Source of the DNA: Gammaproteobacteria bacterium
Lineage (GTDB): Bacteria; Pseudomonadota; Gammaproteobacteria; UBA5335; SLRW01
DNA length: 64,000 bases
Direction of reading: 5' to 3'
NCBI GenBank assembly: GCA_035638695.1
Contig: DASQZM010000043.1
Coordinates: 22,795-86,794 of the forward strand
This document shows positions 10,703-56,993 of this stretch, in pieces. How positions within the stretch are numbered: the first letter of the stretch is position 1; each line of letters begins with the position of its first letter. The notes beneath the pieces are model-generated. The model saw only the letters and a program-made list of their open reading frames with translations. It searched no databases and was not told the DNA's origin. Position numbers and translations under genes: made by a program.

Positions 10703-10821
10703 CGCGTCTCCCCATGGCTGCGTGGAACATCCGGGGCGGGGCCTGGCGCCTCCATCGGCTGCCACTGTACAGGACACGTCGGCGCCGCATTACAACCTAG
10801 CAGCACCACGCAGCCGGTTGT

Positions 10822-11028: not shown

Positions 11029-11460
11029 GTGATCGACAGCCTCAATCCCGCCGCGGAACAGCTGTTCGGGTACCGCGAAAGCGAGCTCACGGGCGAGAAC
11101 GTGCGCATACTCATGCCCTTGCCCTACCGTGATGAGCACGACGGCTACCTGCAGCGTTACCTGGAGACCGGCGAGAAGCACATCATCGGCACCGGGCGCG
11201 AGGTTACGGGACTGCGCCGGGACGGCACTACCTTCCCCATGGATCTGGCCGTCGGCGAGTTCGAGCACGACGGCCACCGCTACTTCGCCGGCGTGGTGCG
11301 CGATGTGACTGACCGGCACGAGTACGAGAACGGCATGGGGCAGGGCTTGTCGATCTGCCACTCGATCGTACGCAGCCATGGCGGCCGCATCGGGCTCGCC
11401 CGCAACCATCCGCATGGCACGCGGTTCACGTTTGCCATACCCTTGCACGATGATCTCTGA
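11029..11460 (+). pseudogene. fixL: FixL-like heme-PAS sensor kinase relic: PAS retained, kinase core (H-box, N, G1, F boxes) deleted
   Basis: The 143-aa ORF reads [10 protein letters not shown]...[22 protein letters not shown]...[40 protein letters not shown]. It then jumps straight to a G2-box/C-terminal HATPase fragment, [38 protein letters not shown]. There is no phospho-acceptor His region. The N-terminal PAS strands are degenerate and there is an in-frame stop at 10921-10923. Confidence 0.6.
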
Positions 11461-12082
11461 TCCCGCGACGCCGACCGTCTACGTGGTCGACGACGAGAAC
11501 GCGATCCGGGACGCCCTGGGGCTTCTGCTGGAGACCGAGGGCTGGCGGGTCCTGAGCTACGAGTCCGCCGACGCCTTCCTCCGCGACTGCGGCCCCGGCA
11601 GCCGCGGGTGTGTCGTGCTGGACCTGAACATGCCCGGCCTGAACGGGCTCGAGGCCCAGGACCGCCTGCGGGAGCAGGGCATCGACATGCCGGTGATCAT
11701 CCTCACCGGCAATGCCGATGTGCCGGCGGCGGTCCGCGCCCTGAAGCACGGTGCGCTGGACTTCATCGAGAAGCCGTTCAGCGAACGCGACATGCTGGCC
11801 GTGGTCGGCCGTGCCCTGGAGCAGGACCGGCGGCGCGCGGAGGCGTCGCGCCAGCGCTCCGAGATCGGGGGGCGAGCGGCGACCCTGACCGGGCGGGAGC
11901 GGGAAATCATGGCGCTGATCGTGGCCGGTAAGGCCAACAAGGTGGTCGCCAGTGACCTGGGCATCAGCGAACGCACCGTGGAGCTGCACCGCTCGCGCAT
12001 CATGAAGAAGATGGGTGCCCGATCCGTGGCGGAGCTGGTGCAAATGAACCTGCAGCTGGGAAGACGGTACGAATCCTCGTAG
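11450..12082 (+). CDS. fixJ: FixJ-type two-component response regulator (REC + LuxR-type HTH)
   Basis: [23 protein letters not shown]...[14 protein letters not shown] (receiver Asp), then [44 protein letters not shown] (LuxR HTH). The start overlaps the fixL-relic stop by 11 nt. Confidence 0.85.
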
Positions 12083-12226
12083 GTTGGCGTGGCTGTTCAG
12101 CGAGCCGCGCGGGACACCCGCGTGGCGCTTCCACCGGTGCCGCGGTCGGGGTATCCTCCTGCAACCGGGCAGCGGCGGGGACGGCCGTCGATCCGGGAGC
12201 CGGCGAGCCGAGCGCCCGGCCGAACG

Positions 12227-12240
12227 CTGACTGGCGTCAA
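12227..12240 (+). promoter_or_regulatory. Candidate FNR/FixK-type box CTGACTGGCGTCAA (7/10; TGA-N6-TCA core intact)
   Basis: Centre is at 12233.5. The -10-like TTGAAT at 12263-12268 gives a predicted +1 near 12275, so the box is at -41.5, upstream of the orphan receiver gene. Confidence 0.35.
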
Positions 12241-12329
12241 TGTTCCGCCGCGGCGGCTGGTGTTGAATGGTCGCCATCGGCCGCCGGGAGCGGCGACGGA
12301 ACCGGATGCAAGCGAGACGGGCCAGGGGG

Positions 12330-12731
12330 ATGAACGCCAACGCCGTAAGACTGACCGACCCGGTCGGAACCGTGTACATCGTGGATGACGACGATGCCGT
12401 GCGCGACGGCGTGTCCCTGCTGGTCCAGGCCTGCGGCTGGACCGTGGCCGCGTTCGATTCGGCGGAGGCGTTCCTGTCCCGCTACGCGCGGGCGGAGAAC
12501 CAGTGTCTGGTGCTTGACCTGCACATGCCGGGGATGAACGGCGCGGAGCTGGAGGAGCACCTCCGGGCCCAGGGCAACGATATCCCGGTGATCGTGATCA
12601 CCGCGTACAAGGAAGATCCCCTGATTACCCGCGCACGTGCCGCCGGCGCCGCGCGGGTACTCACCAAGCCCTTCAACGACGCGGACCTGCTGGAGAGCAT
12701 CGAGCAGGCCGTGGGCAAGCCGCAGCCCTAG
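12330..12731 (+). CDS. Single-domain (CheY-like, FixJ-receiver-like) response regulator
   Basis: VYIVDDDDAVRDGVSLL...LVLDLHMPGMNGAEL...VIVITAY...LTKPF with no output domain. The start is ambiguous (ATG 12330 or ATG 12306). Confidence 0.8.
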   Translation: MNANAVRLTDPVGTVYIVDDDDAVRDGVSLLVQACGWTVAAFDSAEAFLSRYARAENQCLVLDLHMPGMNGAELEEHLRAQGNDIPVIVITAYKEDPLITRARAAGAARVLTKPFNDADLLESIEQAVGKPQP

Positions 12732-12909
12732 CCATCCGCAGACAACCCGTCCGGACTTCCCGTCCCGGTACGGGTAATTACGTATTTCGCCCCTTTCCCC
12801 TTCCTCCTAGAGTTTGCTTCACACGATGAATCGAGCGGGCCGCAGGTGCCTGCGCCCGCGGGAAGCAACACCGGCGGCCAAGCCGGCGAAGGAAAAGGGG
12901 AGTACGAAG

Positions 12910-13671
12910 ATGGGCATGTCAGCGATCGTCGACCTGGAGCAGCGCAAAAATTCCTGCCTCTGGTGCGGAGCCAGGCAGAACTGTATCGCGGCATCGCTGG
13001 AGGCCGCGGATGCGGCCCTGCTGGAGCCGGTCAAGCGCCCCTCCCGGGTGGTCCGCCGCGGACAGCACCTGTTCCTCGCGGGAGACCAGCTGCCGGCGCT
13101 TTACGTGATCCGCTCCGGGTCGATCAAGAGCTACGTCATTACCGAGGACGGCGAGGAGCAAATCATCGGCTTCCACCTGCCCGGCGACACGATCGGCTTC
13201 GACGCCCTGGCCACCGGCGAGGCCCGCTCCAACGCCGCGGCGCTGGAGACCTCCAGCATCTGCACGCTGCCCCTGGAGGGGCTGTGGCAGGTCGCCGAGC
13301 GCTCGGTGACGCTGCGGCGCGAGCTGATCAGGGGCATGAGCCGGGAGGTGCTGCGGCTGACCGGAATGCTGCAGAACGAGCGTCGCACCGCCGATCAGCG
13401 CCTGGCCGCCTTCCTGCTGGACCACGCCGACAACATGGGCCGGCGCGGCTACTCGACCGAGGTGTTCAACCTGTCCATGTCACGCCGGGACATCGGCAAG
13501 TACCTGGACATGGCCACCGAGACGGTCTCGCGGGTGCTGACCCGGTTCCAGGGTCTGGGGCTGCTGGCGACCAACCGCAACGAGATCCGCCTGCTCGACC
13601 CGACGGGCCTGAAGCACCTGGTGACCGAGGGAGGGATCGGGGATACCTCCCGCGCGGTGACCCATCACTGA
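12910..13671 (+). CDS. fnr: FNR/ANR-type oxygen-sensing Crp-family transcription regulator
   Basis: N-terminal C-x2-C-x5-C (SCLWCGARQNC) plus a fourth Cys in ETSSICTLP, equivalent to FNR C20/C23/C29/C122. YVIRSGSIKSY...IIGFHLPGD cNMP-like barrel. Recognition helix ETVSR (E--SR). GGGGAG sits 9 nt upstream of the ATG at 12910. Confidence 0.9.
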   Translation: MGMSAIVDLEQRKNSCLWCGARQNCIAASLEAADAALLEPVKRPSRVVRRGQHLFLAGDQLPALYVIRSGSIKSYVITEDGEEQIIGFHLPGDTIGFDALATGEARSNAAALETSSICTLPLEGLWQVAERSVTLRRELIRGMSREVLRLTGMLQNERRTADQRLAAFLLDHADNMGRRGYSTEVFNLSMSRRDIGKYLDMATETVSRVLTRFQGLGLLATNRNEIRLLDPTGLKHLVTEGGIGDTSRAVTHH

Positions 13672-13703
13672 GCAGCGCACGAACACATCTCCTCCGCGCG
13701 CCT

Positions 13704-13738
13704 GGCCCGGAGCCCGCCGGCTCCGGGCCTTTCTTTTT
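13704..13738 (+). terminator. Rho-independent terminator downstream of fnr
   Basis: GGCCCGGAGCC-cgcc-GGCTCCGGGCC stem-loop, immediately followed by TTTCTTTTT. Confidence 0.75.
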
Positions 13739-13849
13739 GGTGCGGGCACGGGATGGTCAACGACTTGCCAACCCGGTCAGAGGTAATGCCTCATCGCAAC
13801 GCTCCTGTCGGCCTGTCGCACAGGGTGCCTCGCCCGGCGTCGCAAGAGC

Positions 13850-13863
13850 TTGATACGGGTCAA
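13850..13863 (+). promoter_or_regulatory. FNR/ANR box TTGATACGGGTCAA at class II position (-41.5)
   Basis: 9/10 match to TTGAT-N4-ATCAA with a perfect TTGA-N6-TCAA core. The -10-like TCTAAT at 13886-13891 gives a predicted +1 near 13898, and the palindrome centre at 13856.5 is then exactly 41.5 nt upstream. Confidence 0.6.
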
Positions 13864-14038
13864 TGTCGGAGTCCTGGCAGCAGCATCTAATGGGTCTGCC
13901 GGGCCGCGGGCTGTTGTGGATACGCTTGTCGCGCTGCCCGCGTGGCCCGGCCATGCCGCGGTATGGACCGGACGCACCGGGCCGCTGCCAGAGCAGAGGG
14001 GACGGTCTTTTGCCCGGAGCCGGAAGGAGGCCACGATC

Positions 14039-14257
14039 ATGGCCGGGACACGCACCACCAGTACCAGCTCGGCCAAGGCCGCCGCGGCGATGCGCAAGGC
14101 GATCCCCGAGCACGAGCGCCACCGGCGCATTGCCGAAGCTGCCTATTGGCGCGCGGAGAAGCGCGGCTTCCCGGGCCGTGATCCCCTCGAAGACTGGTTG
14201 GTCGCGGAAGCCGAGTTCGAGCACACGAACGACCGCGGCTCCCGCGCCAGAGACTGA
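14039..14257 (+). CDS. Small DUF2934-like protein (72 aa)
   Basis: The ATG at 14039 is preceded by GGAAGGAGG. RIAEAAYWRAEKRGFPGRDPLEDWLVAEAEF matches the DUF2934 signature as I remember it. Confidence 0.7.
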   Translation: MAGTRTTSTSSAKAAAAMRKAIPEHERHRRIAEAAYWRAEKRGFPGRDPLEDWLVAEAEFEHTNDRGSRARD

Positions 14258-14317
14258 CCCGATGCTCGGGAGCGCCGACCGCAACCGTACGGAGGGGTCG
14301 CTGCGAGGACGCCCGGC

Positions 14318-15007
14318 ATGACACAGCCAGGCGGGCAGTACGCCGCCCCCGAGCCCGATCCCGGGGAGTTCGCGGTCAAGGACTGTGCCCTGATCGCGAT
14401 CGCCACCGGCCTGCGCGCGGTCACGCTCGGGGACCTGCAGGACCACCTCCGGGTCGTGGCCCTGGAGAGCCTGTACTACCACTTCTGGGGCGGCCTGCTG
14501 CAGCAGCGGTTCGAGCCGCGCGAGTACAACAACGACTTCGCCGAGTGGGCGCGGCACGCGCTGCACTATGCACCGCTGGCCGAACGGCTGGCGGTGCTCG
14601 ATCCGACCGATCACCCGGACCTCGGGGACCTGCGCCGGGAGCTTCTCGACCGGGTCGAGGAAAGCCTGTACGAATCCGAGGATCTCGGCTGGATGCACGC
14701 GATCCGTCCGTTCGAGTTTATCCGCTGCCAGACGGTCGTGTTCGACACCGACCGGCGCATCCGGGGCCCGGACGAGCTGGCCGACGTGATCCCGGCGCTG
14801 CCGCCGAGCAGCCTCTTCTACCATTTCATCGACGCCCGCCGGCGCGAGCCGCTCGGCGTGGACGACTTCCGCGCTTGGCTGCAGGGCTGGGGACCGGACC
14901 GGCAGGCGCTGATCGACCGGCTGTCCGGGGTCGACCCCTACGAGGGCGGGCTCAACGAGCTGCGCGCCAGCCTGGTGGCCGCGTTCACCGGCGGGGAGGG
15001 CGCGTGA
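14318..15007 (+). CDS. Uncharacterised protein built from two tandem ~95-aa repeats, translationally coupled to treT-like gene
   Basis: 229 aa with an internal duplication: SLYYHFW/SLFYHFI, NDFAEWA/DDFRAWL, LAVLDP/LSGVDP, LRRELL/LRASLV. The stop TGA (15005-15007) overlaps the GTG start of the next gene. Confidence 0.8.
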   Translation: MTQPGGQYAAPEPDPGEFAVKDCALIAIATGLRAVTLGDLQDHLRVVALESLYYHFWGGLLQQRFEPREYNNDFAEWARHALHYAPLAERLAVLDPTDHPDLGDLRRELLDRVEESLYESEDLGWMHAIRPFEFIRCQTVVFDTDRRIRGPDELADVIPALPPSSLFYHFIDARRREPLGVDDFRAWLQGWGPDRQALIDRLSGVDPYEGGLNELRASLVAAFTGGEGA

Positions 15008-16242
15008 GCCTCCTGGACCAGTACGCCGAGGTGGTCGGGCCGGCGATGATCGACCACCTGGCGCAGCTGGCCGCGCCACTTCAGGGCGCGCGCGTGGTGC
15101 ACGTCAACTCCACCCGCGTCGGCGGCGGAGTCGCGGAGATCCTGGGCAAGCTGGTGCCGCTCACGCGCGAACTCGGCGTCGACGCGCAGTGGGAGGTGAT
15201 CAGCGGCGACCAGGACTTCTTCCAGTGCACCAAGAACATGCACAACGGCCTCCAGGGCTCGCCGGTCAATCTTTCCGAACGCCTGGTCCAGGCCTACGAG
15301 ACCACCACGGAGCGGGCCGCCAGCCTGCTGGGCGCGCGGCTCGCCGAGGCGGAGTTCGTGTTCATCCACGATCCGCAGCCTGCCTACCTGCTGCGCTTCT
15401 TCCCTGAGCGGCACGGCAAGTGGATCTGGCGCTGCCATATCGACGTCAGCCACCCGTACCGGCCGGTGTGGAAATACCTGCGGAACATCGTCGGCGGCTA
15501 CGACGCGAGCGTGTTCTCGCTGGCCGCGTTCGCCCAGGCGCTGCCCTGCCCGGAATACATCGTCCCGCCCAGCATCGATCCGCTCGCGGACAAGAACATC
15601 GACCTGGAAGACGCCGAGCTGGGGGCCGTTCGCGCCCGTTTCGGGCTGGATCCGCAGCGGCCGCTGGTGGTCCAGGTTTCGCGCTTCGACCGCTTCAAGG
15701 ACCCGGTGGGGGTGATCCACGCCTTCCGGCTCGCGCTCCGCTACCTGCCCCGGCTGCAGCTGGTGCTCGCAGGGGGCAGCGCGAGCGACGACCCGGAGGG
15801 CGACGTGGTGCTGCAGGAGGTGCGGTCCGCCGCGGCGGACGATCCGGACGTGCACGTACTGCTGCTGCCGGCGGACGACCATCGCACGGTCAATGCCCTG
15901 CAGCGCTGCGCCGACGTGGTCCTGCAGAAATCCTTGCGCGAGGGCTTCGGCCTGACCGTCACCGAGGCCATGTGGAAACATCGCCCGGTGATCGGCGGCA
16001 ACACCGGGGGAATCCGGCTGCAGGTGTTCGACCACCATACCGGCTACCTGGTCAGCACCCCGGAAGGCGCTGCGCTGCGGATCCGGCACCTGATCGCGCG
16101 GCCGGACCGGATCGCGGAAATGGGACAAAAGGCGCACAATCTGGTGCGCGACAATTTCCTGATCACGCGTCAGCTGCGGGAATACCTGACGCTCATGGTC
16201 GCGCTGCTGCACGCAGCGCGCGAACGCATCGAGCTGGGTTGA
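15004..16242 (+). CDS. treT: TreT-like trehalose glycosyltransferring synthase (GT4 family)
   Basis: The GTG at 15004 is preceded by [24 protein letters not shown]...FIHDPQPA...WRCHIDVS...[15 protein letters not shown]...[20 protein letters not shown] closely parallels archaeal/bacterial TreT as I recall it. Confidence 0.78.
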
Positions 16243-16267
16243 CGCCGCCGGAGACGGCAACCGAGGC

Positions 16268-18402
<2,135 letters not shown>

Positions 18403-18406
<4 letters not shown>

Positions 18407-20223
18407 TCCGGCGCCACCGCGAGACCGGGTTCGGCGCCGAGATCATGCCCGACCGCCAGGTGCGTTTCCGGCTCTGGGCGCCGGCGGCGGCGTCGGTCTG
18501 TGTGGTGTCGGACGGCAATCCGGAGCTGCCCATGGCCCCGCAGCGCGGGGGCTGGTTCGAACTCGTCACGGGCGTTCTGGGGCCCGGGGACTGCTATCGC
18601 TACCGCATCGACGGCGGCGCGGCCTGTCCGGATCCCGCTTCGCGCTACCAGCCGCAGGACGTACACGGACCCAGCGAGGTGATCGATCCCGCAGCCTTCG
18701 AATGGCGCGACGACGGCTGGCGCGGGCGGCTCTGGAGCGAGGCCGTGATCTACGAACTGCACCCGGGTACGTTCACGCCCGCTGGCGGCTTTGACGGCGT
18801 GCGCGGGCGCCTGGGCCATCTCTGCGACCTGGGCGTCACAGCTATCGAACTGATGCCGGTGGCGGACTTCCCCGGTCGCCGCAACTGGGGCTACGACGGC
18901 GTGCTGCCGTTTGCACCCGACAGCAGCTACGGGCGCCCGGAATCCCTCAAGCGTCTGGTGCAGGCGGCACACGGCCACGGCCTGATGGTCCTGCTCGACG
19001 TCGTCTACAACCACTTCGGCCCGGAAGGCAACTACCTGCACGGTTACGCCCCGCAGTTCTTCTCCCGGCGCCACCACACGCCCTGGGGCGCCGGGATCAA
19101 CTTCGACGGGGTCGATGCCGGCCCGGTGCGCGACTTCTTTGTCGAAAATGCCCTTTACTGGCTCGAGGAGTATCACCTCGACGGCCTACGCCTGGACGCC
19201 GTGGACACCATCGCGGATGACTCGCGCCCGGACATCCTGGACGCGATCGCCGCGGCCGTGCACGACGGACCGGCCCGTCGGCGGAGCGTCCACCTGGTGC
19301 TGGAGAATGACCGCAACGACCCACACCGCCTGGACCGGCCGAACGGCTACACGGCCCAGTGGAACGACGACCTGCACCACGTTCTGCATCTGCTGACGAC
19401 CGGCGAGCGCGAGGGCTACTACCGGGACTACGCGGACCGCCCCGCGGCGCACCTGGCGCGCTGCCTCACCGAGGGCTTCGCCTACCAGGGCGAGCCCTCG
19501 GCCTTCCGCGGCGGGCGACCGCGCGGCGCGCCCAGCGGCCACCTGCCGCCCGGCGCCTTCGTCGGCTTCCTGCAGAACCACGACCAGGTCGGCAACCGGG
19601 CGCTGGGCGAGCGCATCACGGCGCTGGCGCCCGCCGACGCGGTGCGCGCGGCGCTCACCATCCTGCTGCTCGCCCCCGCACCGCCACTGTTGTTCATGGG
19701 CCAGGAATGGGGCAGCAGGCGGCCGTTCCTGTTCTTCTGCGACTTCGAGCCCGCCCTGGCACGCAAGGTCGCGAACGGGCGGCGGGACGAGTTCGCGGAT
19801 TTCCCGGCGTTCGCCGGCCCCGGGGCACGCCGGCGCATCCCGAACCCCGGCGACCGGAACACCTTCACCCGCTGCGTGCTCGACTGGGGCGAGATCGCGC
19901 GCGACGGCCACGCGGCGTGGCTGTCCCTGCACCGTGAGCTTCTGGCACTGCGCCGGAACCTGCTGCCGGGCCTCGCCGGCGCCCGCGCCGAAAATGCAGG
20001 CGCCATCGGACCGGGAGCCGTGTGCATCACGTGGACCCTCCCTGACGGATCCCGGCTGACCCTCGCCGCAAACCTCCACGCCGCGCCCTCGGCGCCGCTG
20101 CCGCAGGCCCGCGGCGAGTTGCTGTTCACCGCCGGCGAGGCCCCGTCGCCGGCCGGGGACAGCTGGCGGCTGGCGCCCTGGAGCGCGCGCTGGTACCAGG
20201 ACCGGGGGGAGGCCCGCGGGTGA
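18403..20223 (+). CDS. treZ: Malto-oligosyltrehalose trehalohydrolase
   Basis: The GTG at 18403 overlaps the glgX stop (GTGA). [18 protein letters not shown]..., [39 protein letters not shown] and [11 protein letters not shown] motifs. An alternative ATG at 18445 would cut the conserved FGA. Confidence 0.9.
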
Positions 20224-23200
20224 ACGCGGAAGATTTGCTGGAGCGCCTGGCGCGCTGCCACGGCATCGAGCCGGCCTACCACGATATCTGGGGCAACCAG
20301 CACGCGACCAGCGCGGAGACCGCGCGCGCGCTGCTGCGCGCCATGGGGGTGCCGGCGGACGATCCGGCGGCGATGCGCGCCGCACTCGCGGTAGCCGGGG
20401 AGCGCCCGTGGCGCGAGGTGCTCGATCCGGTGCTGGTCACCTCCGCCGATGCGCCGCTGCACATCCGCCTGCATCTGCCCGCAACCGCGCCCGAATCGCC
20501 GGGTCGCTGGCGGCTGCTGCCCGAGGCGGGCGAGCCACGCGAAGGCACCCTGCGCCTCGACGAGCTCGCCGTGCTGGAGCGGCGCGAGATCGACGGCGTC
20601 GCCTGCGGCCGTTACGAGCTGGTGCTGGACGGCCTGCCAGCCGGATATCACCGGTTCGAGCTGGACGGCCAGCGGCCCGCCGGCATGCCGGTGATCGCCG
20701 TGCCGCCCCGCTGCTACCTCCCGCCTGTCCTGGAGCAGGGCGGGCGGCTGTGGGGCCCGGCGGTGCAACTCTATTCCCTGCGGTCCGCACGCAACTGGGG
20801 CATCGGCGACTTCACCGACCTCGACGACCTGGCCCGGCTGGCCGGCGACCTCGGCGCCGACATGCTGGGCCTGAGTCCGCTGCATGCGCTGTTCCCGCAC
20901 CAGCCCGAGCGCTGCAGCCCCTACCGGCCCTCCAGCCGGCTGTTCCGCAATGTTCTCTACCTCGACGCCGAGCGCCTCCCGGAGCTGGGCGAATGCCCGG
21001 AGGCCGCCGCCATGGTGCAGGATCCCGACTTCCAGGCGGAGCTGCAGGCACTGCGCGAGAGCGAGCTGGTCGACTACCCGGGGGTCGCGGCGGTCAAGCT
21101 GCCACTGCTGGAGCGCCTCCACCGGCACTTTCGCGAGCGGCACCTGGAACCGGACAGCGAGCGGGGCCGGGCGTTCCGGGAATTCCGGCGCTCCGGGGGC
21201 CGCGCGCTGCAGCGGCACGCCCTGTTCGAGGCGCTGCAGGAGCACTTCCTGGAGCAGGACCCGCCCGTACCCGATTGGCCGTCCTGGCCGGAGCGCTACC
21301 GGCGACCGGACACGCCGCAGGTCGCGGCGTTCGCCGCCAGCCGGGCCGGCCGCATCGAATTCCATGCCTGGCTGCAGTGGCTGGTGCGGGAGCAGCTCGA
21401 TGCCGCCGCGCGGCGGACGGGGGAAATGGCAGTCGGGCTGTACCAGGACCTCGCCGTGAGTGTCGACCCGGACGGGGCCGAAGCCTGGGCCAACCAGGAT
21501 CTCTACGCCATCACCGTCAGCATCGGCGCACCCCCGGACGACTTCAACCTGCGTGGGCAGGACTGGGGGCTGCCGCCGCCGATCCCGCAGCGCCTGCGCC
21601 GGGCGGCGTACGCGCCGTTCATCGCCACCCTCCGGCATAACATGCGCGACGCCGGCGCATTGCGCATCGATCACGTGATGGGGCTGATGCGGCTGTTCTG
21701 CGTGCCCCGCGAGGCCTCTCCCGAGCAAGGCGCCTATGTCGCCTATCCGCTGGACGATCTGCTCGGGATCCTGGCGCTGGAGAGTCAGCGCAATCGCTGC
21801 CTGGTCATCGGCGAAGACCTGGGCACGGTGCCCGACGCGCTGCGCCAGGCGCTGGCCAACCGCCGGATCCTGTCGTACCGGGTGCTGATGTTCGAGAAGA
21901 CCGGGCGCGGCTTTCGCGCGCCGGAGGAATACCCGCCGCAGGCGCTAGCCACGGCCGGCACCCACGACCTGCCGACCCTGTCCGGCTTCTGGGAGGGACG
22001 CGACCTGGTGCTGCGCACCGAGCATGCCCTGTTTCCGAGCGAGGCCCTGCGGGACGCGCAGCAGGCACAGCGGGAACGGGACCGGAGCGACCTGCTCCAC
22101 GCCCTGCAACGCGAGCGGCTGCTCCCGGAGGGAGTGGACACCGATCCCGCCGCGGTGCCGCGCATGACCGAGGCCCTGGCCGGTGCTTTGCAGCGCTATC
22201 TCGCCCGCAGCCCGGCGATGCTGATGGCGCTGCAGCTGGAAGACCTGTTCGGTCAGCGCGAGCAGATGAACCTTCCGGGGACGGTGGACGAGTACCCCAA
22301 CTGGCGGCGCAAGCTGTCCCTGGGACTGGAGCGCTACCCGGCGGACGGCCGGCTGCATCGGGTCGCCGACGCGCTCGCCGCCGAAGGGCGCAGCGGCGCG
22401 GGGGCGGGGCCCCGACAAGAACCCCGCCCGCAGGGCGACGACCCGGCCGTGGTCCCGCGGGCCAGCTACCGGCTGCAGCTCAACGCCGGGCTGACCTTCG
22501 CCGATGCGCGTGGCCTGGTGGGCTACCTGGACTCGCTCGGGATCAGCCACTGCTACGCCTCGCCCTGCCTGAAGGCGCGACCGGGCAGCAGCCATGGCTA
22601 CGACATCGTCGACCACTCGGCCCTGAACCCCGAGCTCGGTGCGCGGGACGAGTTCCAGGCCTGGACCGACGCCCTGCACGCTGCGGGCATGGGACTGATC
22701 CTGGACATCGTGCCCAACCACATGGGGGTGATGGGCGCCGACAACAGCTGGTGGCTGGACGTGCTGGAGCAGGGGCCGGCCTCTCGCTACGCGGACTTTT
22801 TCGACATCGACTGGCACCCGGTCAAGCCGGAGCTCCACGGCAAGGTGCTGGTTCCGGTACTCGGCGACCACTACGGGGTGGTGCTGGAAAGCGGCGCCCT
22901 GCGGCTGGAGCTGGACCCGGCCAAGGCCTCCTGGAGCGCCTTCTACCACGAGCACCGCTTCCCGCTGGACCCGGCGACCTGGCCACGGCTGCTGCGCAGC
23001 CAGCTCGGCCTGCTCGCCGACCGGCTCGGGGCTGACCACCCGGCGCCACCGGCGCTGGAGCGGCTGGCCGGCGACCTGGAGGAGCTGCCCGAACGAACCG
23101 ATCCCTCCCGGGAGCGCTGCGCGGCGCGGCTCCAGGCCTGCCGCGCCCACAAGCAGACCCTGGCGGCGCTGTGCCGGCAGCATCCCCAGGCCCGGGAGCA

Positions 23201-25319
23201 CCTGGAACGGACGGTGACCGGATTCTTCAACGGCCGCCCCGGGGACGCGGCGAGCTTCCAGCCGCTGCACGAGCTGCTCGAGGCACAGGCGTTCCGGCTC
23301 GCCCACTGGCAGGTAGCGGGCGACGAGATCAACTATCGCCGCTTCTTCGACGTCAACGAACTTGCCGGCCTGCGTACGGAGAACCTGCGCGTGTTCGAGG
23401 CAACCCACCGGCTGGTGCTGGCGCTGGTCTCCGAGGGCCGGGTCCAGGGCCTGCGGATCGACCATCCGGATGGCCTCTACCACCCGCAGCAGTATCTCCG
23501 GCGCCTGCGCGACAGGCTCAGCGCGGTGGCACCGCCCGGGCACCCGGAGCCGCCGGTATACCTGGCAGTGGAAAAGATCCTCGCCGCGGGCGAGTCCCTG
23601 CGCGACGACTGGCCGGTCCACGGCACCACCGGCTACGACTTCGCGGCGCTGGCGGGCGGCCTGCTGGTCGACCCCGCGGCGGGCGGGCGCCTGGAGCGCA
23701 TCTACAACTGGTTCACAGGCGCGCACCACGACTTCGACGAGATCCTGTACCGGTCGCGCCGGCATATCATGCGTGTCAGCCTCGCCAGCGAGCTGAACGT
23801 GCTGGCCAACGCGCTCAACCGGCTCTCCGAGTCGGACTGGAGGACCCGGGACTTCACCCTGGGTGGCTTGCGCTACGCCCTGTCCGAGATCCTCGCCTGC
23901 TTTCCGGTGTACCGCACCTACGTAACGGGCGAGGGTATCACCGATACCGATGCGCAATACGTGCGTCACGCCGCCGACCTCGCGCGCCGCCGCAACGCCG
24001 GCACCGACACCAGCGCAATCGATTTCGTCGAGGACCTGCTGCTGCTGCGTGCCGGACAGGCGGACGAGGCGCAGCGCTGGCGGGTGGCGGACTTCGCCAT
24101 GCGCGTCCAGCAGTACACCGCCGCGCTGATGGCCAAGGGCCTGGAGGACACCGCGCTGTATCGTTACCACCGCCTGGTGTCGCTGAACGAAGTGGGCGGT
24201 GATCCCTCCCGCTTCGGGGTCGACCCGGCCGCGTTCCACCGGCAGGTGTGGCTGCGTGCGCAGCGGTGGCCGCACCCGATGCTCGCCACGTCCACCCACG
24301 ACGCCAAGCGCAGCGAGGACGTGCGTGCGAGGATCGACGTGCTGTCCGAGCTTCCCGGGCAATGGCGTGCGGCGCTGGCGCGCTGGCGCCGCCTGCGCCG
24401 GCAGCTGGTCGCCGGCCCCGGTCCCGCGCGCGAGGACGAGTACCTGTTCTACCAGACGCTGGTCGGGACCTGGCCGCTGCACGAACTGGACGCCGACGGC
24501 TGGTCGAGCTACCGGGAGCGCCTGCGCGGCTATCTGCTCAAGGCCGCACGCGAGGCGAAGCGCCATACCTCCTGGATCCGCCTTGACGAGGAATACGAAA
24601 GGGCCCTGTGCGCGCTGGTCGACGGCCTGCTGGACCCTTCGGCCGGCGCCGCGTTCGTCGAGGACTTCGCCGCCTTCCACCGGCCGGTAGCGCTGCTGGG
24701 GGCGCTGAACAGCCTGTCCCAGTGCCTGCTGAAGCTGACCTGTCCTGGCGTCCCCGACCTCTACCAGGGCACCGAGCTGTGGGACTTCTCGCTGGTCGAT
24801 CCGGACAACCGGCGGCCGGTCGATTTCGACCGGCGCCGGCGCTGCCTCAAGTCTCTGCACGACATGGACCGGCTGGCGCCGCGAGCCCGCGGCGCGGCCG
24901 TCGCGGGGTTGCTTCGGCGGTGGCCCGACGGGCGCATCAAGATGCACCTGCTGCGCGAAGGGCTGCGCCTGCGGCGGCGCTTCCCCGCGCTGTTCCGCGA
25001 CGGCGACTACCTGCCACTGGAGCCGTCGGGATGCTGGGGGTCCCGGATCGTGGCGCATGCCCGCGGCCTTCCCGGCGGGCCCGCCTGTATCGCCGTCGCC
25101 CCGCGCCTCCTCACAGGACCCGCGGAAGGCGGACAGCGCATGCCGCTGGGCACGGTCTGGGGAGACACCGTCCTGGCCCTGCCCGAATGGCTGGCGGGGC
25201 GGTCCTATCGCGAGGCGCTTACCGGGATCCGGCTCGAGCGCCCGGGCGCCGGGGTGTCGCTTTCACACGTGCTGCAACACTTGCCGCTGGCGCTGCTGGT
25301 CGCGGAGGAGCTGGAATGA
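20220..25319 (+). CDS. malQ-treY: Fusion: 4-alpha-glucanotransferase (MalQ, GH77; aa 1-~720) + malto-oligosyltrehalose synthase (TreY; aa ~744-1699)
   Basis: Single uninterrupted 1699-codon frame. The N-terminal part has LYSLRSARNWGIGDFTDL, RIDHVMGL, GEDLGTVP and AGTHDLPT (GH77). A Gly/Pro/Gln-rich linker follows (SGAGAGPRQEPRPQGDDPA). Then come ASYRLQLNAGLTFADA...SHCYASP...SSHGYDIVDH and GLRIDHPDGL (TreY). The GTG start overlaps the treZ stop. Confidence 0.9.
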   Translation: MNAEDLLERLARCHGIEPAYHDIWGNQHATSAETARALLRAMGVPADDPAAMRAALAVAGERPWREVLDPVLVTSADAPLHIRLHLPATAPESPGRWRLLPEAGEPREGTLRLDELAVLERREIDGVACGRYELVLDGLPAGYHRFELDGQRPAGMPVIAVPPRCYLPPVLEQGGRLWGPAVQLYSLRSARNWGIGDFTDLDDLARLAGDLGADMLGLSPLHALFPHQPERCSPYRPSSRLFRNVLYLDAERLPELGECPEAAAMVQDPDFQAELQALRESELVDYPGVAAVKLPLLERLHRHFRERHLEPDSERGRAFREFRRSGGRALQRHALFEALQEHFLEQDPPVPDWPSWPERYRRPDTPQVAAFAASRAGRIEFHAWLQWLVREQLDAAARRTGEMAVGLYQDLAVSVDPDGAEAWANQDLYAITVSIGAPPDDFNLRGQDWGLPPPIPQRLRRAAYAPFIATLRHNMRDAGALRIDHVMGLMRLFCVPREASPEQGAYVAYPLDDLLGILALESQRNRCLVIGEDLGTVPDALRQALANRRILSYRVLMFEKTGRGFRAPEEYPPQALATAGTHDLPTLSGFWEGRDLVLRTEHALFPSEALRDAQQAQRERDRSDLLHALQRERLLPEGVDTDPAAVPRMTEALAGALQRYLARSPAMLMALQLEDLFGQREQMNLPGTVDEYPNWRRKLSLGLERYPADGRLHRVADALAAEGRSGAGAGPRQEPRPQGDDPAVVPRASYRLQLNAGLTFADARGLVGYLDSLGISHCYASPCLKARPGSSHGYDIVDHSALNPELGARDEFQAWTDALHAAGMGLILDIVPNHMGVMGADNSWWLDVLEQGPASRYADFFDIDWHPVKPELHGKVLVPVLGDHYGVVLESGALRLELDPAKASWSAFYHEHRFPLDPATWPRLLRSQLGLLADRLGADHPAPPALERLAGDLEELPERTDPSRERCAARLQACRAHKQTLAALCRQHPQAREHLERTVTGFFNGRPGDAASFQPLHELLEAQAFRLAHWQVAGDEINYRRFFDVNELAGLRTENLRVFEATHRLVLALVSEGRVQGLRIDHPDGLYHPQQYLRRLRDRLSAVAPPGHPEPPVYLAVEKILAAGESLRDDWPVHGTTGYDFAALAGGLLVDPAAGGRLERIYNWFTGAHHDFDEILYRSRRHIMRVSLASELNVLANALNRLSESDWRTRDFTLGGLRYALSEILACFPVYRTYVTGEGITDTDAQYVRHAADLARRRNAGTDTSAIDFVEDLLLLRAGQADEAQRWRVADFAMRVQQYTAALMAKGLEDTALYRYHRLVSLNEVGGDPSRFGVDPAAFHRQVWLRAQRWPHPMLATSTHDAKRSEDVRARIDVLSELPGQWRAALARWRRLRRQLVAGPGPAREDEYLFYQTLVGTWPLHELDADGWSSYRERLRGYLLKAAREAKRHTSWIRLDEEYERALCALVDGLLDPSAGAAFVEDFAAFHRPVALLGALNSLSQCLLKLTCPGVPDLYQGTELWDFSLVDPDNRRPVDFDRRRRCLKSLHDMDRLAPRARGAAVAGLLRRWPDGRIKMHLLREGLRLRRRFPALFRDGDYLPLEPSGCWGSRIVAHARGLPGGPACIAVAPRLLTGPAEGGQRMPLGTVWGDTVLALPEWLAGRSYREALTGIRLERPGAGVSLSHVLQHLPLALLVAEELE

Positions 25320-27034
25320 GCGTGCAGAACGCCGAGATTGCCCGCCTGTTCGCGCGTCTGGCAGATCTGCTGGAGATCGAGCAGCAGAACCCGTTCCGGG
25401 TCCGGGCCTACCGCAACGCCGCACGCGTGATCGGCGGCCTGTCGCATCCGGTAGCCGATCGCGTGGCCACCGGCGAGGACCTGACCGATCTGCCGGGGAT
25501 CGGGGAGGACCTGGCCGACCGCATCATCGGCATCGTCAAGACCGGCCGTTTTCCGCTGCTGGAGGAGGTCGAGCGGCGCACCCCCGGCACCCTGAGCGAC
25601 CTCATGAAGGTGCCGGGCCTGGGGCCGGCACGCGTGCGCACCCTCTACCGGGAGCTGGGCATCACCGGCCCGGAGGACCTGGAGCGCGCGCTGCGCACGG
25701 GCGCGGTGCGCGAGCTGTCAGGCTTCGGCGAGAAGACCGAGGCCGCGCTGCGGTCGGCGCTGGCGCGCACCCGGGCGGCCTCGGAGCGCACCCTGCTGGC
25801 CGAGGCGGAGACCCTGGCGCGACCGCTGAGCGAGTGGCTGGGCGGCTGCGAGGGCGTGCTCGAGGTCGCGGTCGCGGGCAGCTTCCGGCGGCGGCGGGAG
25901 ACGGTAGGCGACCTGGACATCCTGGTGACCTGTCGCCGCGGCGCGTCGGTGATGGACTGCTTCACGGCCTGGGAGGACGTGGGCGAGGTAATCTCGCGGG
26001 GCCGGACGCGCTCCACGGTAATGCTGCGCTCCGGCACGCAGGTGGACCTGCGGGTCGTGCCGCAGATCAGCTATGGGGCGGCCCTGCAGTACTTCACCGG
26101 CTCGCGCGCGCACAACATCCACGTCCGCCGCATCGCCGGCCAGCGCAAGCTCAAGATCAACGAGTACGGGGTCTTCCGCGGTCGCCGCCGGGTCGCCGGG
26201 CGGAACGAGGAAGAGGTGTATGCGGCCCTGGACCTGCCCTGGATCCCCCCGGAGCTGCGCGAGGACGCCGGCGAGATCGAGGCCGCGGCCCGCGGTGCCC
26301 TGCCGCGGCTGATCGAGCCGAGCGACCTGCGCGGTGACCTGCATTGCCACACCCGGGCCACCGACGGTCAGCAGAGCATCGGGGAAATGGCCCGCGCCGC
26401 CGCGGACCGCGGCCACGAGTACCTCGCCATCACGGATCACTCGCGTCGCGTGTCGATGGCCCACGGCCTGGACGCGGACGCGCTGCTGGCCGAGATCGAC
26501 GAGATCGACCGCATCGCCGAGACCCTGCCGGACATGCGGCTGCTCAAGGGCATCGAGCTGGACATCCTCGAGGACGGAAGCCTGGACCTGCCGGACCGGG
26601 TGCTGGACCGCCTGGACCTGACCGTGTGCGCCGTACACTACGGCCTGGGCCTGTCCCGGCGCCGGCAGACCGAGCGCATCCTGCGGGCCATGGACAATCC
26701 CCGCTGCACCATCCTGGCCCACCCGCGGGGGCGCCTGATCGGCGAGCGCGAGCCTTGCGAGCTGGACATGGAACGCATCATGCGTGGCGCCCGCGAGCGC
26801 GGCTGTATCCTGGAGGTCAACGCCCAGCCGCGGCGCCTGGACCTGTCCGACAGCGACTGCCGCATGGCCTGCGAGCTGGACGTGGCGCTGGCGATCAATA
26901 CCGACGCGCACTCGGCAGCCCAGCTGGACCTGCTTCGGTTCGGCGTGGACCAGGCCCGGCGCGGCTGGGTGGAGCCGGGGCGGGTGATCAACACCCTGCC
27001 GCTCGGCGAGCTGCTCGCCCGCCTGCGGCGCTGA
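25316..27034 (+). CDS. polX: Family X DNA polymerase with C-terminal PHP phosphoesterase domain (PolX)
   Basis: The ATG at 25316 overlaps the malQ-treY stop (ATGA). NAEIARLFARLADLLEI...NPFRVRAYRNAARVI (HhH), GSFRRRRETVGDLDILV (catalytic Asp pair), HCHTRATDG...LAITDHS (PHP). Confidence 0.9.
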   Translation: MSVQNAEIARLFARLADLLEIEQQNPFRVRAYRNAARVIGGLSHPVADRVATGEDLTDLPGIGEDLADRIIGIVKTGRFPLLEEVERRTPGTLSDLMKVPGLGPARVRTLYRELGITGPEDLERALRTGAVRELSGFGEKTEAALRSALARTRAASERTLLAEAETLARPLSEWLGGCEGVLEVAVAGSFRRRRETVGDLDILVTCRRGASVMDCFTAWEDVGEVISRGRTRSTVMLRSGTQVDLRVVPQISYGAALQYFTGSRAHNIHVRRIAGQRKLKINEYGVFRGRRRVAGRNEEEVYAALDLPWIPPELREDAGEIEAAARGALPRLIEPSDLRGDLHCHTRATDGQQSIGEMARAAADRGHEYLAITDHSRRVSMAHGLDADALLAEIDEIDRIAETLPDMRLLKGIELDILEDGSLDLPDRVLDRLDLTVCAVHYGLGLSRRRQTERILRAMDNPRCTILAHPRGRLIGEREPCELDMERIMRGARERGCILEVNAQPRRLDLSDSDCRMACELDVALAINTDAHSAAQLDLLRFGVDQARRGWVEPGRVINTLPLGELLARLRR

Positions 27035-27047
27035 CCGAGGGTCTCCA

Positions 27048-27833
27048 ATGCCCGAGCTTCCCGACGTTGAATGCTTCCGCCGCAGCCTGCGGAACCTGCG
27101 CGGCCGGCGCGTGCGCGCGGTGCGCGTAGAGGCGCCCGGGATGCTGGAGGGGCTGGGACCGGACCAGCTCGCGAGGGCCCTCGCGGGAAAGCGTTTCCGG
27201 GAGATCGGCCGGCGCGGAAAACACCTGCTGGCCGGGCTCGAAGGGGGCGGCGCCCTGACGCTGCAGTTCGGCATGTCGGGCCGGCCCGAGCTGCTCGAGC
27301 CGGGTCAGCCGGAGCCGCCCTACACGCGGCTGGCGATCGCCCTCGACCGCGGCGCACTGGCCGTGGCGGACCCGCGCAAGCTGGGTCACGTTGGGTTCGC
27401 CGTCGACCTCGACGAATGGCTGCGGCAGCGCGAGCTCGGCCCGGATGCGCTGGCGCTGCCCGCGGACGCCTTCGCCGCGCTGCTGCGCGGCTCGCGTGCC
27501 GGGCTCAAGTCTTTGCTGATGGACCAGCGCGCCCTCGCCGGGATCGGCAACGTCTACTCCGACGAGATCCTGTTCCAGGCCCGGATGCACCCGGCCCGCC
27601 GGGCGCGCGATCTGACCGGCGCCGAGGCCCGGCGGCTGTACCACTGCATACACGCGGTGCTGGAGACGGCGATCGATTCCGCTGCCGAGCCCGAACGGAT
27701 GCCGCCGGGCTACCTGATCCATTACCGGCGCAAGGATGCGCACTGCCCCCGCTGCGACACAGCCCTGGAGCGGCTCAGTTTTTCCGGGCGCCACGCCTGG
27801 ATCTGCCCGCGCTGTCAGCCGGAGCCCGGCTAA
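27048..27833 (+). CDS. Fpg/Nei-family DNA glycosylase/AP lyase (non-canonical, short variant)
   Basis: MPELPDVE N-terminus (catalytic Pro2/Glu3), H2[23 protein letters not shown]-terminal CPRC...CPRC zinc finger. Only 13 nt downstream of polX. Confidence 0.85.
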
Positions 27834-29194
27834 TAGGCGTATTCCCGGAAGACCGGGTCGATGTTCTCGCGCCAGCGACCGTGGAAAGCGTCCAGCAGCT
27901 CCTGCGCGGGACAGCGGCCGGACTGCGCGATGGTATCGAGCACGTCGAGGTAGGGGCTCTCGTCGACGTCGCGCACGCCGCGGCGGGCGCGACGGCGCAG
28001 CCCTTCGCGCGCCAGCGTGAGCACGTCGACCGCGACCTCCCGCAGGCTGCGGTCACGAAAGCGGGTTCCCAGCGCATCACGGGGAACCTCCCGCCGCAGG
28101 CGGGCGTGTTCTTCCGGGGTCCAGTCGCGGACGTAGTCCCAGGCTTGGTCCAGCACGGCGCTGTCGTAGGTCAGGCCGACCCACACCGCGGGCAGCGCGC
28201 ACAGCCGCCCCCAGGGGCCGCCGTCGGCGTCGCGCATCTCCAGGAAGCGCTTGAGCCGAACCTGCGGGAACAGCGTGGTCAGGTGATCCTCCCAGTCGCC
28301 CAGGGTCGGGCGCTCGCCGGGGAGGCCGGGCAGGCGCCCCGCCATGAAGTCGCGGAAGGACTGGCCGGCGACGTCGATGTAACGTCCTTCGCGATGGACG
28401 AAATACATCGGCACGTCCAGGGCGTAGTCGACGTAGCGCTCGAAGCCCATGCCGGACTCGAACACGAACGGCAGGATCCCGCAGCGGTCGGGGTCGGTGT
28501 CGGTCCAGACGTGGCTGCGTAAACTGAGGTAGCCGGACGGACGGCCCTCGACGAAGGGCGAGTTCGCGAACAGGGCGGTGATCACCGGCTGCAGTGCGAG
28601 AGCCACCCGGAACTTGCGCACCATGTCCGCCTCCGAGGCGAAGTCCAGGTTCACCTGCACGGTGCAGGTGCGCAGCATCATGTCCAGCCCCAGCGAGCCC
28701 ACCGTCGGCATGTAGGCGCGCATGATGGCGTAGCGGCCCTTGGGCATCCAGGGCACGTCGCTCCGGCGCCACTTCGGCTGGAAGCCGAGGCCGATCAGAC
28801 CCACGCCGAGCTCCTCGGCCACCGCCTTGACCTGTGCGAGATGCGTGTGCACCTCGTCGCAGGTCTGGTGGATGGTCTCCAGCGGCTTGCCCGACAGCTC
28901 CAGCTGCCCCCCCGGCTCCAGCGAGATGCTGCAGCCTTCGTGCGAGAGGGCGATGGTCTGCCCGTTCTCCAGCACCGGCTTCCAGCCGTAACGCCGCAGA
29001 CCCTCGAGAAACGCGCCGATCCCGTCCGGGCCCTCGTAGGGAACCGGGCGCAGGTCCGAGAGCCGGTACACGAACTTCTCGTGCTCGGTGCCAATGCGCC
29101 ACTGTTCTGGCGGCTTGCAGCCGGATTCCAGGTAGGCCACGAGCTGGCGCCTGTCGGTGACCGGTTCGCGATTGGCGGGGGATGCGCCGGACAT
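27830..29194 (-). CDS. gshA: Glutamate-cysteine ligase, plant/alphaproteobacterial GCS2 type
   Basis: 454 aa: [24 protein letters not shown]...; full-length resemblance to the GSH1-type enzyme. Confidence 0.88.
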
Positions 29195-29439
29195 GCGAGA
29201 TGACTCCGTTGGCTCCGCGGGCCACCGTCACCACGGCGAACCCGCACCGTCACGGCATGGTGTCAGGGAAGCGGTCGTGGCTCAATCCGGCCGCAGGAGC
29301 CGGTGGTTTGACCTGCATCATCACCGGCAGCGGCGAGCGCTGCCAGACTGGATCCGGATGGCGGCGTACGCCGCCGTGATCAGGAACCCGGCGACAGCCG
29401 GGTTAGTAAACATACCCTCAATCGCGCCGGAACGGAATC

Positions 29440-32713: not shown

Positions 32714-32716
32714 GCA

Positions 32717-32899: not shown

Positions 32900-32936
32900 G
32901 GCGCCCCCTGTCTGCGCCCACTCCGCTCCCGCCCGA

Positions 32937-56973: not shown

Positions 56974-56993
56974 TGGCCAACCTGGGGATCGGA

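Follow-up and report, generated by a model that had tools for sequence, protein, structure and literature searches.

Gene content of the string

Positions 14039-27833 of the window analysed here, a 64,000-nucleotide stretch of contig DASQZM010000043.1 (assembly GCA_035638695.1, Gammaproteobacteria bacterium) with a G+C content of ~70%, carry a string of eight tightly packed genes on the + strand, in which genes of trehalose biosynthesis (tre) run directly into genes for the DNA polymerase PolX and for an Fpg/Nei-family DNA glycosylase/lyase. The first of the eight encodes a small DUF2934 protein of 72 amino acids (aa) (14039-14257; Pfam PF11154, E=8e-11) and has a strong ribosome-binding site, GGAAGGAGG. 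It is followed by a DUF5752/OrfY-like gene (14318-15007) and by the genes for a TreT-like trehalose glycosyltransferring synthase of family GT4 (15004-16242), the glycogen debranching enzyme GlgX (16268-18406), the malto-oligosyltrehalose trehalohydrolase TreZ (18403-20223), a MalQ-TreY fusion of 1699 aa (20220-25319), PolX with its POLXc and PHP domains (25316-27034), and the glycosylase/lyase, a divergent Fpg-like paralogue (27048-27833). All eight open reading frames (ORFs) are intact and in frame, with junction spacings of, in order, +60, -4 (GTGA), +25, -4 (GTGA), -4 (GTGA), -4 (ATGA) and +13 nucleotides (nt). Boundaries and junctions agree to the base with those given in an earlier reading made from the letters of the DNA (hereafter the sequence-only reading), the gene identities of which are likewise borne out by Pfam and NCBIfam, and independent gene calls for public contigs of the same genome reproduce the boundaries exactly.

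The G+C content at third codon positions (GC3) lies at a uniform 0.84-0.93 across the eight genes and the genes beside them; hence, all frames are truly coding and the composition is homogeneous. A recent foreign origin of either the tre or the polX-fpg block was considered and is ruled out by the uniform GC3 and codon usage of string and flanks. Over the 25 kb for which gene calls are available, spacer lengths are bimodal: they do not exceed 60 nt within the string, and the remaining same-strand spacers measure 178, 223 and 367 nt once two further pairs that are obviously operonic (-11 and -4 nt) are set aside. The string stands out locally as a single, tightly packed unit.

For comparison we refer to two related lineages with PolX proteins that are, respectively, 91% (L035/L001) and 80% (L028/L020) identical to that of the window, and to the nearest outgroup, a metagenome-assembled genome represented by its tre operon (L029/L030) and its PolX contig (L021).

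The trehalose genes

GlgX (TIGR02100, 1060.9 bits; cut-off 640.9), TreZ (TIGR02402, 695.9 bits; cut-off 538.8) and the TreY part of the fusion (TIGR02401, 978 bits; cut-off 499) each score above the curated threshold, which makes the locus a member of the TreY/TreZ trehalose pathway operons, and the MalQ part of the fusion also exceeds its cut-off (TIGR00217 malQ, 483 bits; cut-off 206). Compared with the full-length model NF011077, MalQ-TreY scores 2138 for a cut-off of 2148; fusions of ~1700 aa are frequently encountered in Gamma- and Betaproteobacteria, Nitrospirota and Nitrospinota. The C-terminus of TreY has normal length, ending six residues beyond the conserved (F/L)P(V/L)ALL motif, and since this tail is typical, an extension of TreY created by the fusion can be ruled out.

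The TreT-like protein contains the domains TreT_GT1 (Pfam PF21269, 186.8 bits; cut-off 27) and Glycos_transf_1 (PF00534). It remains below the equivalog cut-off of NF041139 (TreT_Thcocales; 381 versus 775 bits), a model built on Thermococcales, and is therefore labelled 'TreT-like'. The preceding gene, which the sequence-only reading had left as an unknown protein, encodes a DUF5752 protein (Pfam PF19027, E=3e-74) matching Protein Data Bank (PDB) entry 4CSO, 'OrfY protein, transcription factor' (E=3.7e-15). A 4-nt overlap of the DUF5752 gene with treT is present in the gene calls of the window, L028 and L029; in L035 the caller picked a later treT start, yet the protein alignment reaches the identical junction. 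The DUF2934 gene is present in L035 and L028 and was not called in L029. Judged by these matches, OrfY-TreT is an old pair, and its occurrence here suggests a conserved functional pair spanning archaea to gammaproteobacteria.

PolX and the Fpg-like glycosylase

PolX scores 486 bits with NF006375 (cut-off 426) and aligns over its full length with PolX from Thermus thermophilus (PDB 3AU2, E=2e-149), with which it shares identical motifs throughout (GDLD, QVDLRV, GFGEK of the type GFGxK, HCH..D, DHS, GIE, VH, AHP and TDAH), so that all catalytic motifs of the polymerase (GDLD..D) and all metal-ligand motifs of the PHP domain are kept. The start of the protein is anchored by the alignments to PolX models and to 3AU2, which begin at residue 4.

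The Fpg-like protein (Pfam Fapy_DNA_glyco, H2TH and zf-FPG) exhibits the hallmarks of its family, that is, (i) the Met-Pro-Glu N-terminus, which is obligatory and fixes the start of the gene, (ii) the catalytic Lys in RRGKHL, (iii) the H2TH domain, and (iv) a C4 zinc finger, CPRC-x16-CPRC. It falls below both equivalog cut-offs for MutM (NF002211, 180 versus 212 bits; TIGR00577, 169 versus 203 bits) and is therefore filed as an Fpg/Nei-family paralogue rather than as MutM. In pairwise alignments, on which this comparison is based, a short AEPxRMP..(F/Y)LI stretch replaces the long loop between H2TH and zinc finger that caps 8-oxoguanine in MutM, and this stretch aligns better with Arabidopsis FPG1 (3TWK); by sequence, the closest structural relative of the protein is T. 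thermophilus MutM (1EE8). Short loop and zinc finger are common to the other PolX-linked Fpg copies, and the substrate preference of the protein may differ from that of MutM.

Every gene of the string is under purifying selection; for polX, comparison with L035 and L028 yields a ratio of nonsynonymous to synonymous divergence (dN/dS) of 0.15-0.19. The PHP activities reported for bacterial PolX proteins comprise 3'-phosphatase, 3'-phosphodiesterase and apurinic/apyrimidinic (AP)-endonuclease, and polymerase and 3'-5' exonuclease activities are also known for PolX homologues (PMC6616362). The proposal of the sequence-only reading that PolX and Fpg may form a minimal base-excision pair appears reasonable.

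Boundaries of the transcription unit and the treY/polX junction

The unit is bounded upstream by the intrinsic terminator of the adjacent gene for an FNR-like regulator (13704-13729, + strand; an 11-bp stem with 10 G-C pairs, then TTTCTTTTT), which is conserved in L035, and the leader before the DUF2934 gene measures 367 nt. The downstream boundary is the convergent gene gshA (27830-29194, - strand), which encodes a plant-type glutamate-cysteine ligase (TIGR01436, 712.8 bits; cut-off 463). The stop codons of fpg and gshA overlap (CTAATAG at 27829-27835), an arrangement also found in L035 and L028, and there is no terminator between them, the nearest terminator-like site on the + strand being located 257 nt past fpg. 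The convergent transcripts are therefore expected to run into each other's coding regions.

Inside these boundaries, none of the seven junctions offers room for a promoter or contains a terminator-like site, which bears out the earlier remark that almost no space is left for internal promoters. The sole terminator candidate on the + strand within the string is weak and lies in treZ (20099-20116), and neither an AT-rich island nor a promoter-like patch was found within 2 kb upstream of polX. The whole window is without Rfam match and without tRNA, so that leader and spacers contain no riboswitch, small RNA or tRNA. SOS control was also considered and rejected: the leader and the surroundings of polX are free of LexA boxes (CTGT-N8-ACAG with at most one mismatch), of which the window contains fewer than expected.

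Its genes on one strand, its short or negative spacers and its terminator-free junctions qualify the string as a predicted operon, and in operon prediction no class of genes is more likely to be co-transcribed than those that overlap on one strand. Co-transcription of all eight genes, as put forward in the sequence-only reading, is quite likely because promoter room, terminators and AT-rich islands are missing, a Shine-Dalgarno sequence is embedded in treY, and the ATGA overlap is conserved in the two related lineages.

At the treY/polX junction the ATG of polX overlaps the treY stop codon (ATGA), and a ribosome-binding site, GGAGGAG, sits in the last codons of treY. Upon folding, this junction shows less structure than shuffled versions of it (z=+2.8, worse than all 200 shuffles), and the folding of the corresponding junctions in L035 and L028 is unremarkable. 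This comparison rules out an RNA hairpin that would mask the polX start and make coupling obligate. Translational coupling, as proposed earlier, may take place via termination-reinitiation but is not imposed by RNA structure.

A predicted FNR-type promoter

The gene directly upstream of the string (12910-13671, + strand) lies on the same strand, with the terminator in between, and encodes a regulator of the Crp/Fnr family (Pfam cNMP_binding, HTH_Crp_2 and Crp). The protein matches FNR of Aliivibrio fischeri (5CVR) with E=1e-47; the four Cys ligands expected for a [4Fe-4S] cluster, C16-x2-C19-x5-C25 and C118 (ETSSIC), are matched by Cys in the A. fischeri protein, and the recognition helix, ETVSR, pairs with ETISR (E--SR). 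The gene is syntenic with the tre operon in L035, in L028 and, at 35% identity, in L029.

The leader of the string contains an FNR-type box, TTGATACGGGTCAA (13850-13863, + strand), which agrees with the consensus at 9/10 positions and is one of just two sites with at most one mismatch in the 64 kb, against an expectation of 0.2. The box is kept in the otherwise diverged leaders of L035 (TTGATATGCGTCAA) and L028 (TTGACCGGCGTCAA), and L029 has it, too, ahead of a tre operon that lacks PolX (TTGATCGGCGTCAA). A -10-like hexamer, TCTAAT, can be read from the sequence 22 nt past the box (13886-13891, + strand); the same spacing is found in L035 (TCTAAT) and L028 (TTGAAT), with TnnAAT common to the three. 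From this we infer a start near 13898, which would place the centre of the box ~41.5 nt upstream, and a box near -41.5 represents the classical class II geometry of FNR. The prospects that the string is controlled by FNR appear evenly balanced. Such control looks like a property of the tre operon which polX-fpg would have acquired via fusion, because the box also precedes the outgroup's tre operon, which is devoid of polX.

Among the regions upstream of PolX in 12 other loci, only that of L021 was positive for an FNR box: the unlinked polX of the outgroup has a box with one mismatch 84 nt upstream; the spacing of this box is 5 nt off and its locus is rich in boxes, and it provides only a hint that control might be shared when the genes are unlinked. 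The locus L011 (PolX 58% identical; positions 6-10195) contains three identical, perfect FNR-type palindromes, TTGATCTGGATCAA, along with near-perfect ones, all within 12 kb around PolX. None of them is located in the scanned 400 nt upstream of PolX, and they may represent either a repeated element or a dense FNR regulon.

Directly upstream of the string, the FNR-like gene completes a cluster of oxygen-sensing regulators (11029-13671) which starts with a FixL-like PAS fragment of 143 aa, possibly degenerate and retaining only the tail of the kinase domain, and continues with a FixJ-like response regulator (11450-12082) and a receiver-only protein (12306-12731).

Distribution of the linkage

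Pattern scans for PolX yielded 10 genome loci and 9 metagenome loci, which are too few for a statistical neighbourhood census. The closest relatives of the window's PolX are 91% and 80% identical, followed by a plateau at 60-65% which includes Nitrosococcus, Thioalkalivibrio and Methylohalobius.

L035 and L028 share the full gene order, FixJ-like, receiver (REC), FNR-like, DUF2934, OrfY, TreT, GlgX, TreZ, MalQ-TreY, PolX and Fpg, and downstream of Fpg they continue with gshA (reverse), lonC and a gene of 275 aa; an HhH-GPD gene follows as well in L028 (L035 ends before). The ATGA overlap and the GGAG ribosome-binding site in the last treY codons are kept in L035 and in L028/L020, at a synonymous divergence (dS) from the window of ~0.3-0.4 for L035 and 0.6-0.9 for L028. 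The entire neighbourhood of ~25 kb is syntenic in this clade, unrelated flanks (FNR, gshA, lonC, the 275-aa gene, HhH-GPD) included. To the question, raised in the sequence-only reading, whether polX-fpg follows treY/malQ in related genomes, the survey gives a divided answer: it does so in these two lineages, but neither in the outgroup nor in the other lineages sampled.

In the outgroup, OrfY-TreT-GlgX-TreZ-MalQTreY (L029/L030; 55-69% identical) gives way to intergenic, non-coding DNA containing a hairpin, and PolX (63%) is encoded on a separate contig (L021), behind a divergent ATP-grasp gene and adjoining lonC and the 275-aa gene. Since the PolX-lonC-275-aa adjacency is common to clade and outgroup, the position of PolX beside lonC is, by this comparison of gene order, ancestral, and it would be the tre operon that was brought to PolX. 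In Sulfurifustis variabilis, GlgX-TreZ-MalQTreY is followed by an unrelated hydrolase.

PolX-Fpg occurs intact without tre genes in the metagenome lineages L024 and L025 (Fpg 44-45% identical), in L024 behind genes for hydrogenase maturation and a formyltransferase. In Nitrosococcus halophilus (L023), PolX is directly followed by an ORF of 110 aa (11724-12056) that retains MPELPDVE but no part of Fpg beyond the N-terminal domain, apparently what truncation has left of the PolX-Fpg pair. PolX without an Fpg partner is found in the outgroup, in Thioalkalivibrio denitrificans and in the 58% relatives.

T. denitrificans (L026, 333-19722) encodes homologues of GlgX (67%), of a GH65 enzyme (59%) and of a trehalose-phosphatase (46%) within 10 kb on either side of PolX, and this arrangement may be what remains of an earlier association, at the regional level, between PolX and genes of glycogen and trehalose metabolism. 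In view of weak PilZ matches in L028 and T. denitrificans, we asked whether the tre block had been inserted between polX and a gene for a PilZ protein; as these two PilZ-like proteins proved not to be related to each other, the idea was dropped. The more distant PolX loci sampled (Planctomycetota, Chloroflexota and others) have neither Fpg nor tre genes within 10 kb. A recurrence of tre-polX without synteny of the flanks was not encountered in the outgroup, Sulfurifustis, Nitrosococcus, Thioalkalivibrio, the two metagenome lineages or the distant loci.

A looser proximity exists in Deinococcus. In D. radiodurans, treY/treZ (DR_0463/0464) and polX (DR_0467) bear close locus tags, and these tags are confirmed in the literature. 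In D. wulumuqiensis (L036-L038; 8561-20717), polX, a GGDEF/EAL gene, a CAP-domain gene, treZ and treY lie on one strand with gaps of ~200-720 nt, treZ-treY being located 4.2 kb downstream of polX. In D. geothermalis, Kineococcus and Rubrobacter, to judge from locus tags, hundreds of genes separate the polX and tre orthologues. Being loose, non-operonic and confined to one species group, the Deinococcus arrangement was treated as coincidence and not as an independent recurrence. As an observation in its own right, the upstream neighbour of polX in D. wulumuqiensis is a methyltransferase-like gene, which shares 4 nt with polX and itself comes after a stand-alone gene for a PHP domain.

Neighbouring genes

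About 3 kb upstream, a second trehalose-related unit (6705-10777, - strand) consists of a GH65 phosphorylase (ORF of 887 aa) followed by a fused HAD/trehalose-phosphatase (552 aa). The longest ORFs of the two overlap by 250 nt, and GH65 probably starts later; an FNR-like box with two mismatches is located at 10822, in the divergent promoter region of the GH65 unit.

Beyond gshA, a gene for a LonC-like protease and the 275-aa gene, which is without family match, overlap by 4 nt (29440-32696; L021, 13059-16300) and adjoin PolX even in the outgroup, which lacks the tre fusion. The divergent spacer between gshA and lonC contains another FNR-like box with two mismatches, at 29308. A third gene of DNA-glycosylase type (32937-33596, - strand), which belongs to the HhH-GPD superfamily, is weakly AlkA-like and is kept in L028, lies 5 kb past fpg; between it and the convergent 275-aa gene there is a sharp AT-rich island (32693-32907) in which the G+C content drops to 0.30. 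Finally, the region 56000-62000 is unlike the rest of the window in G+C content (0.635-0.665) and in GC skew (up to +0.19), and no rRNA, tRNA or Rfam match explains this.

Origin and meaning of the linkage

We favour, with a probability of roughly 0.6, the view that the string is a lineage-specific super-operon that arose by accretion, in which an older polX-fpg pair has come under a tre promoter that is probably controlled by low oxygen. The first of its two modules would be a glycogen-to-trehalose operon: GlgX would debranch glycogen, TreY and TreZ would turn the linear chains into trehalose, and the MalQ domain would recycle short leftovers and free glucose usable by TreT, so that this route and that of OrfY-TreT, which would form trehalose from NDP-glucose and glucose, could feed each other. 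This operon is accompanied by the gene for an FNR-like regulator and has an FNR box in its leader. The second module would be the older repair pair: the Fpg-like enzyme would excise an oxidised base and cut by beta,delta-elimination; at the resulting gap of one nucleotide, the PHP domain of PolX would clear the 3'-phosphate and the polymerase domain would then carry out the fill-in. In the clade's ancestor, DNA between malQ-treY and polX would have been lost until the polX ATG overlapped the treY stop. Most likely, polX-fpg would now be transcribed from the tre promoter (box at 13850-13863, -10 at 13886-13891), as part of a single mRNA of ~14 kb that would extend from near 13898 through fpg and have its 3' end inside the convergent gshA. 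PolX would be translated from its own Shine-Dalgarno sequence in the unstructured junction, possibly aided by reinitiation. The link between the two functions is probably regulatory and not biochemical, consisting in shared control by low oxygen, and this sharing may be either selected or merely tolerated.

It is also conceivable, if rather improbable, that the juxtaposition is neutral, that is, that a rearrangement or deletion along with genome compaction brought the units together, and that polX-fpg is expressed mainly from its own promoter in the 3' part of treY or by read-through devoid of selective value; the co-linearity would then be biologically meaningless. This would agree with the confinement of the linkage to one narrow clade in which unrelated flanks are equally syntenic, with the separate contigs on which the nearest outgroup keeps its tre and PolX units, and with the absence of a wider tre-PolX association from the distant PolX loci sampled and, by locus tags, from D. 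geothermalis, Kineococcus and Rubrobacter. Overlaps of 4 nt are, moreover, common in this genome (lonC and the 275-aa gene), even the convergent genes fpg and gshA overlapping, and with its own ribosome-binding site in an unstructured region PolX would not need the translation of treY. The overlap leaves, however, zero non-coding DNA, the 2 kb upstream of polX are free of AT-rich or promoter-like patches, and overlap and embedded ribosome-binding site have survived a dS of ~0.7-0.8 in L028; genes that overlap on the same strand belong, as general experience has it, to the class likeliest to be co-transcribed.

The sequence-only reading had proposed a dedicated module for protection and repair, which on this view would be under selection for co-expression during desiccation, oxidative stress or re-aeration. 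All evidence for co-transcription would suit such a module, as would the low-oxygen- and redox-related surroundings (the FixL fragment, the FixJ-like and FNR-like regulators, gshA, and GH65 with trehalose-phosphate phosphatase), the FNR boxes that precede both the unlinked PolX and the tre operon of the outgroup, the proximity of PolX to homologues of GlgX, GH65 and trehalose-phosphate phosphatase within 10 kb in T. denitrificans, and the 4.2 kb that separate polX from treZ-treY on the same strand of D. wulumuqiensis. The tre-polX operon does not recur independently, however: the linkage is found only in one narrow, fully syntenic clade and the two units are separate in the outgroup. In Deinococcus, two unrelated genes and gaps of ~200-720 nt stand between polX and treZ, and the proximity is absent in D. 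geothermalis; the outgroup's PolX box is the only one in 12 regions, in a box-dense locus and with a spacing 5 nt off; and elsewhere, as in L024, PolX-Fpg stands behind unrelated genes. We consider such a module unlikely, and an adaptive coupling of protection and repair is correspondingly doubtful. It is tempting to speculate that oxygen limitation sensed by the adjacent FNR-like regulator would lead to one transcript for trehalose synthesis and for an AP-endonuclease-independent repair pair, in anticipation of the oxidative burst upon re-aeration, and that FNR control would be shared even when the genes are unlinked; this, too, appears improbable to us.

That a chimeric assembly or wrong start and stop calls have feigned the arrangement can be dismissed as next to impossible, even though the window is from a metagenome-assembled genome: each of three independent assemblies (ERZ27257072, ERZ27257104 and ERZ27257098) has the same bases at the treY/polX junction, which excludes an assembly artefact, the architecture is repeated in two diverged lineages, the starts of PolX and Fpg are fixed by full-length alignment and by the Met-Pro-Glu N-terminus, respectively, and the C-terminus of TreY has its usual length.

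Several observations count against the accretion into a low-oxygen-controlled super-operon that we favour. Persistence of the junction within the clade is weak evidence that the junction is under selection, because the unrelated flanking genes are equally syntenic and the lineages are close, and plain inheritance could explain it. A promoter inside the 3' part of treY would be compatible with the sequence. A scan for sigma-70 promoters returned zero matches in 12500-30000, the region upstream of the operon included, a result which is uninformative at 70% GC. The top NCBIfam match of the regulator, Fnr NF008365, remains below its cut-off (195.7 versus 228), and the protein is therefore labelled 'FNR-like'; predicted start and class II spacing derive from a weak -10-like hexamer; and in the outgroup L029 the box is present with a different spacing to the -10 region downstream. 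With dN/dS of 0.33-0.40, fpg is moreover under weaker constraint than any other gene in the string.

It is common for unrelated functions to be fused into one operon, and all components of the string are from known families; the novelty is in the arrangement of known parts. PolX-Fpg is the more general and better supported unit, and the link to trehalose is local. If the favoured reading holds, the locus would provide a natural example of a repair gene pair captured by the promoter of a stress-metabolism operon, with the unfused ancestral state visible in a sister genome. The recurrence of PolX-Fpg in a set of gammaproteobacteria, with a distinct short-loop Fpg paralogue, suggests by analogy a bacterial counterpart of the base excision route that employs a glycosylase, a 3'-phosphatase and a family X polymerase, and the predicted FNR promoter would tie trehalose synthesis, and via the fusion DNA repair, to low oxygen. 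None of these points overturns current understanding.

Comparison with known systems

Operons of the TreY/TreZ (maltooligosyl-trehalose) pathway with GlgX and MalQ occur in Proteobacteria, Actinobacteria and Sulfolobus. The order GlgX-TreZ-MalQTreY and the fusion of ~1700 aa recur in many genomes; the present operon differs from these by DUF2934 and OrfY-TreT at its head and by two DNA-repair genes at its tail, and none of the tre operons examined outside the clade (L029/L030, Sulfurifustis) continues into polX. The head resembles OrfY-TreT of Thermoproteus tenax, where the two genes are presumably neighbours, in that the DUF5752 protein matches OrfY (4CSO) and its gene overlaps that of a TreT_GT1 glycosyltransferase by 4 nt. 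Here, however, the pair is found in a bacterial, high-GC context, and TreT scores 381 against the archaeal cut-off of 775.

PolX of the window is a full-length homologue of the proteins from T. thermophilus and Bacillus subtilis, with all catalytic motifs identical to those of 3AU2, and in bacteria PolX serves in gap filling and in the cleaning of 3' ends during base excision repair. In the literature searched, polX is not reported to adjoin fpg/mutM or trehalose genes in B. subtilis, T. thermophilus or Deinococcus; neither a tre-polX operon nor a polX-fpg pair was found there. With Fpg/MutM the Fpg-like protein shares the N-terminal Pro-Glu, the catalytic Lys, H2TH and the C4 zinc finger, from which it departs by scores below the MutM cut-offs and by the short stretch, resembling Arabidopsis FPG1, in place of the capping loop. 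The mammalian repair route that is independent of AP endonuclease (APE), in which NEIL1/2, PNKP and Pol beta act, offers an analogy to the sequence proposed for the pair, from beta,delta-lyase via 3'-phosphate and phosphatase to a family X polymerase. It is an analogy only, in that phosphatase (PHP, not PNKP) and polymerase would here be two domains of one protein.

The predicted control by low oxygen has a parallel in Paraburkholderia phymatum, where a trehalose synthase gene (SptreS) is reported to respond to microoxia by induction, to have a putative Fnr site and to protect against H2O2, to which its mutant is sensitive (PMC13375364). There, treS stands alone without repair genes attached (PMC13375364); in the window, a box of the type TTGAT-N4-(A/G)TCAA lies ~41.5 nt before the predicted start of a tre operon that has two such genes at its end.

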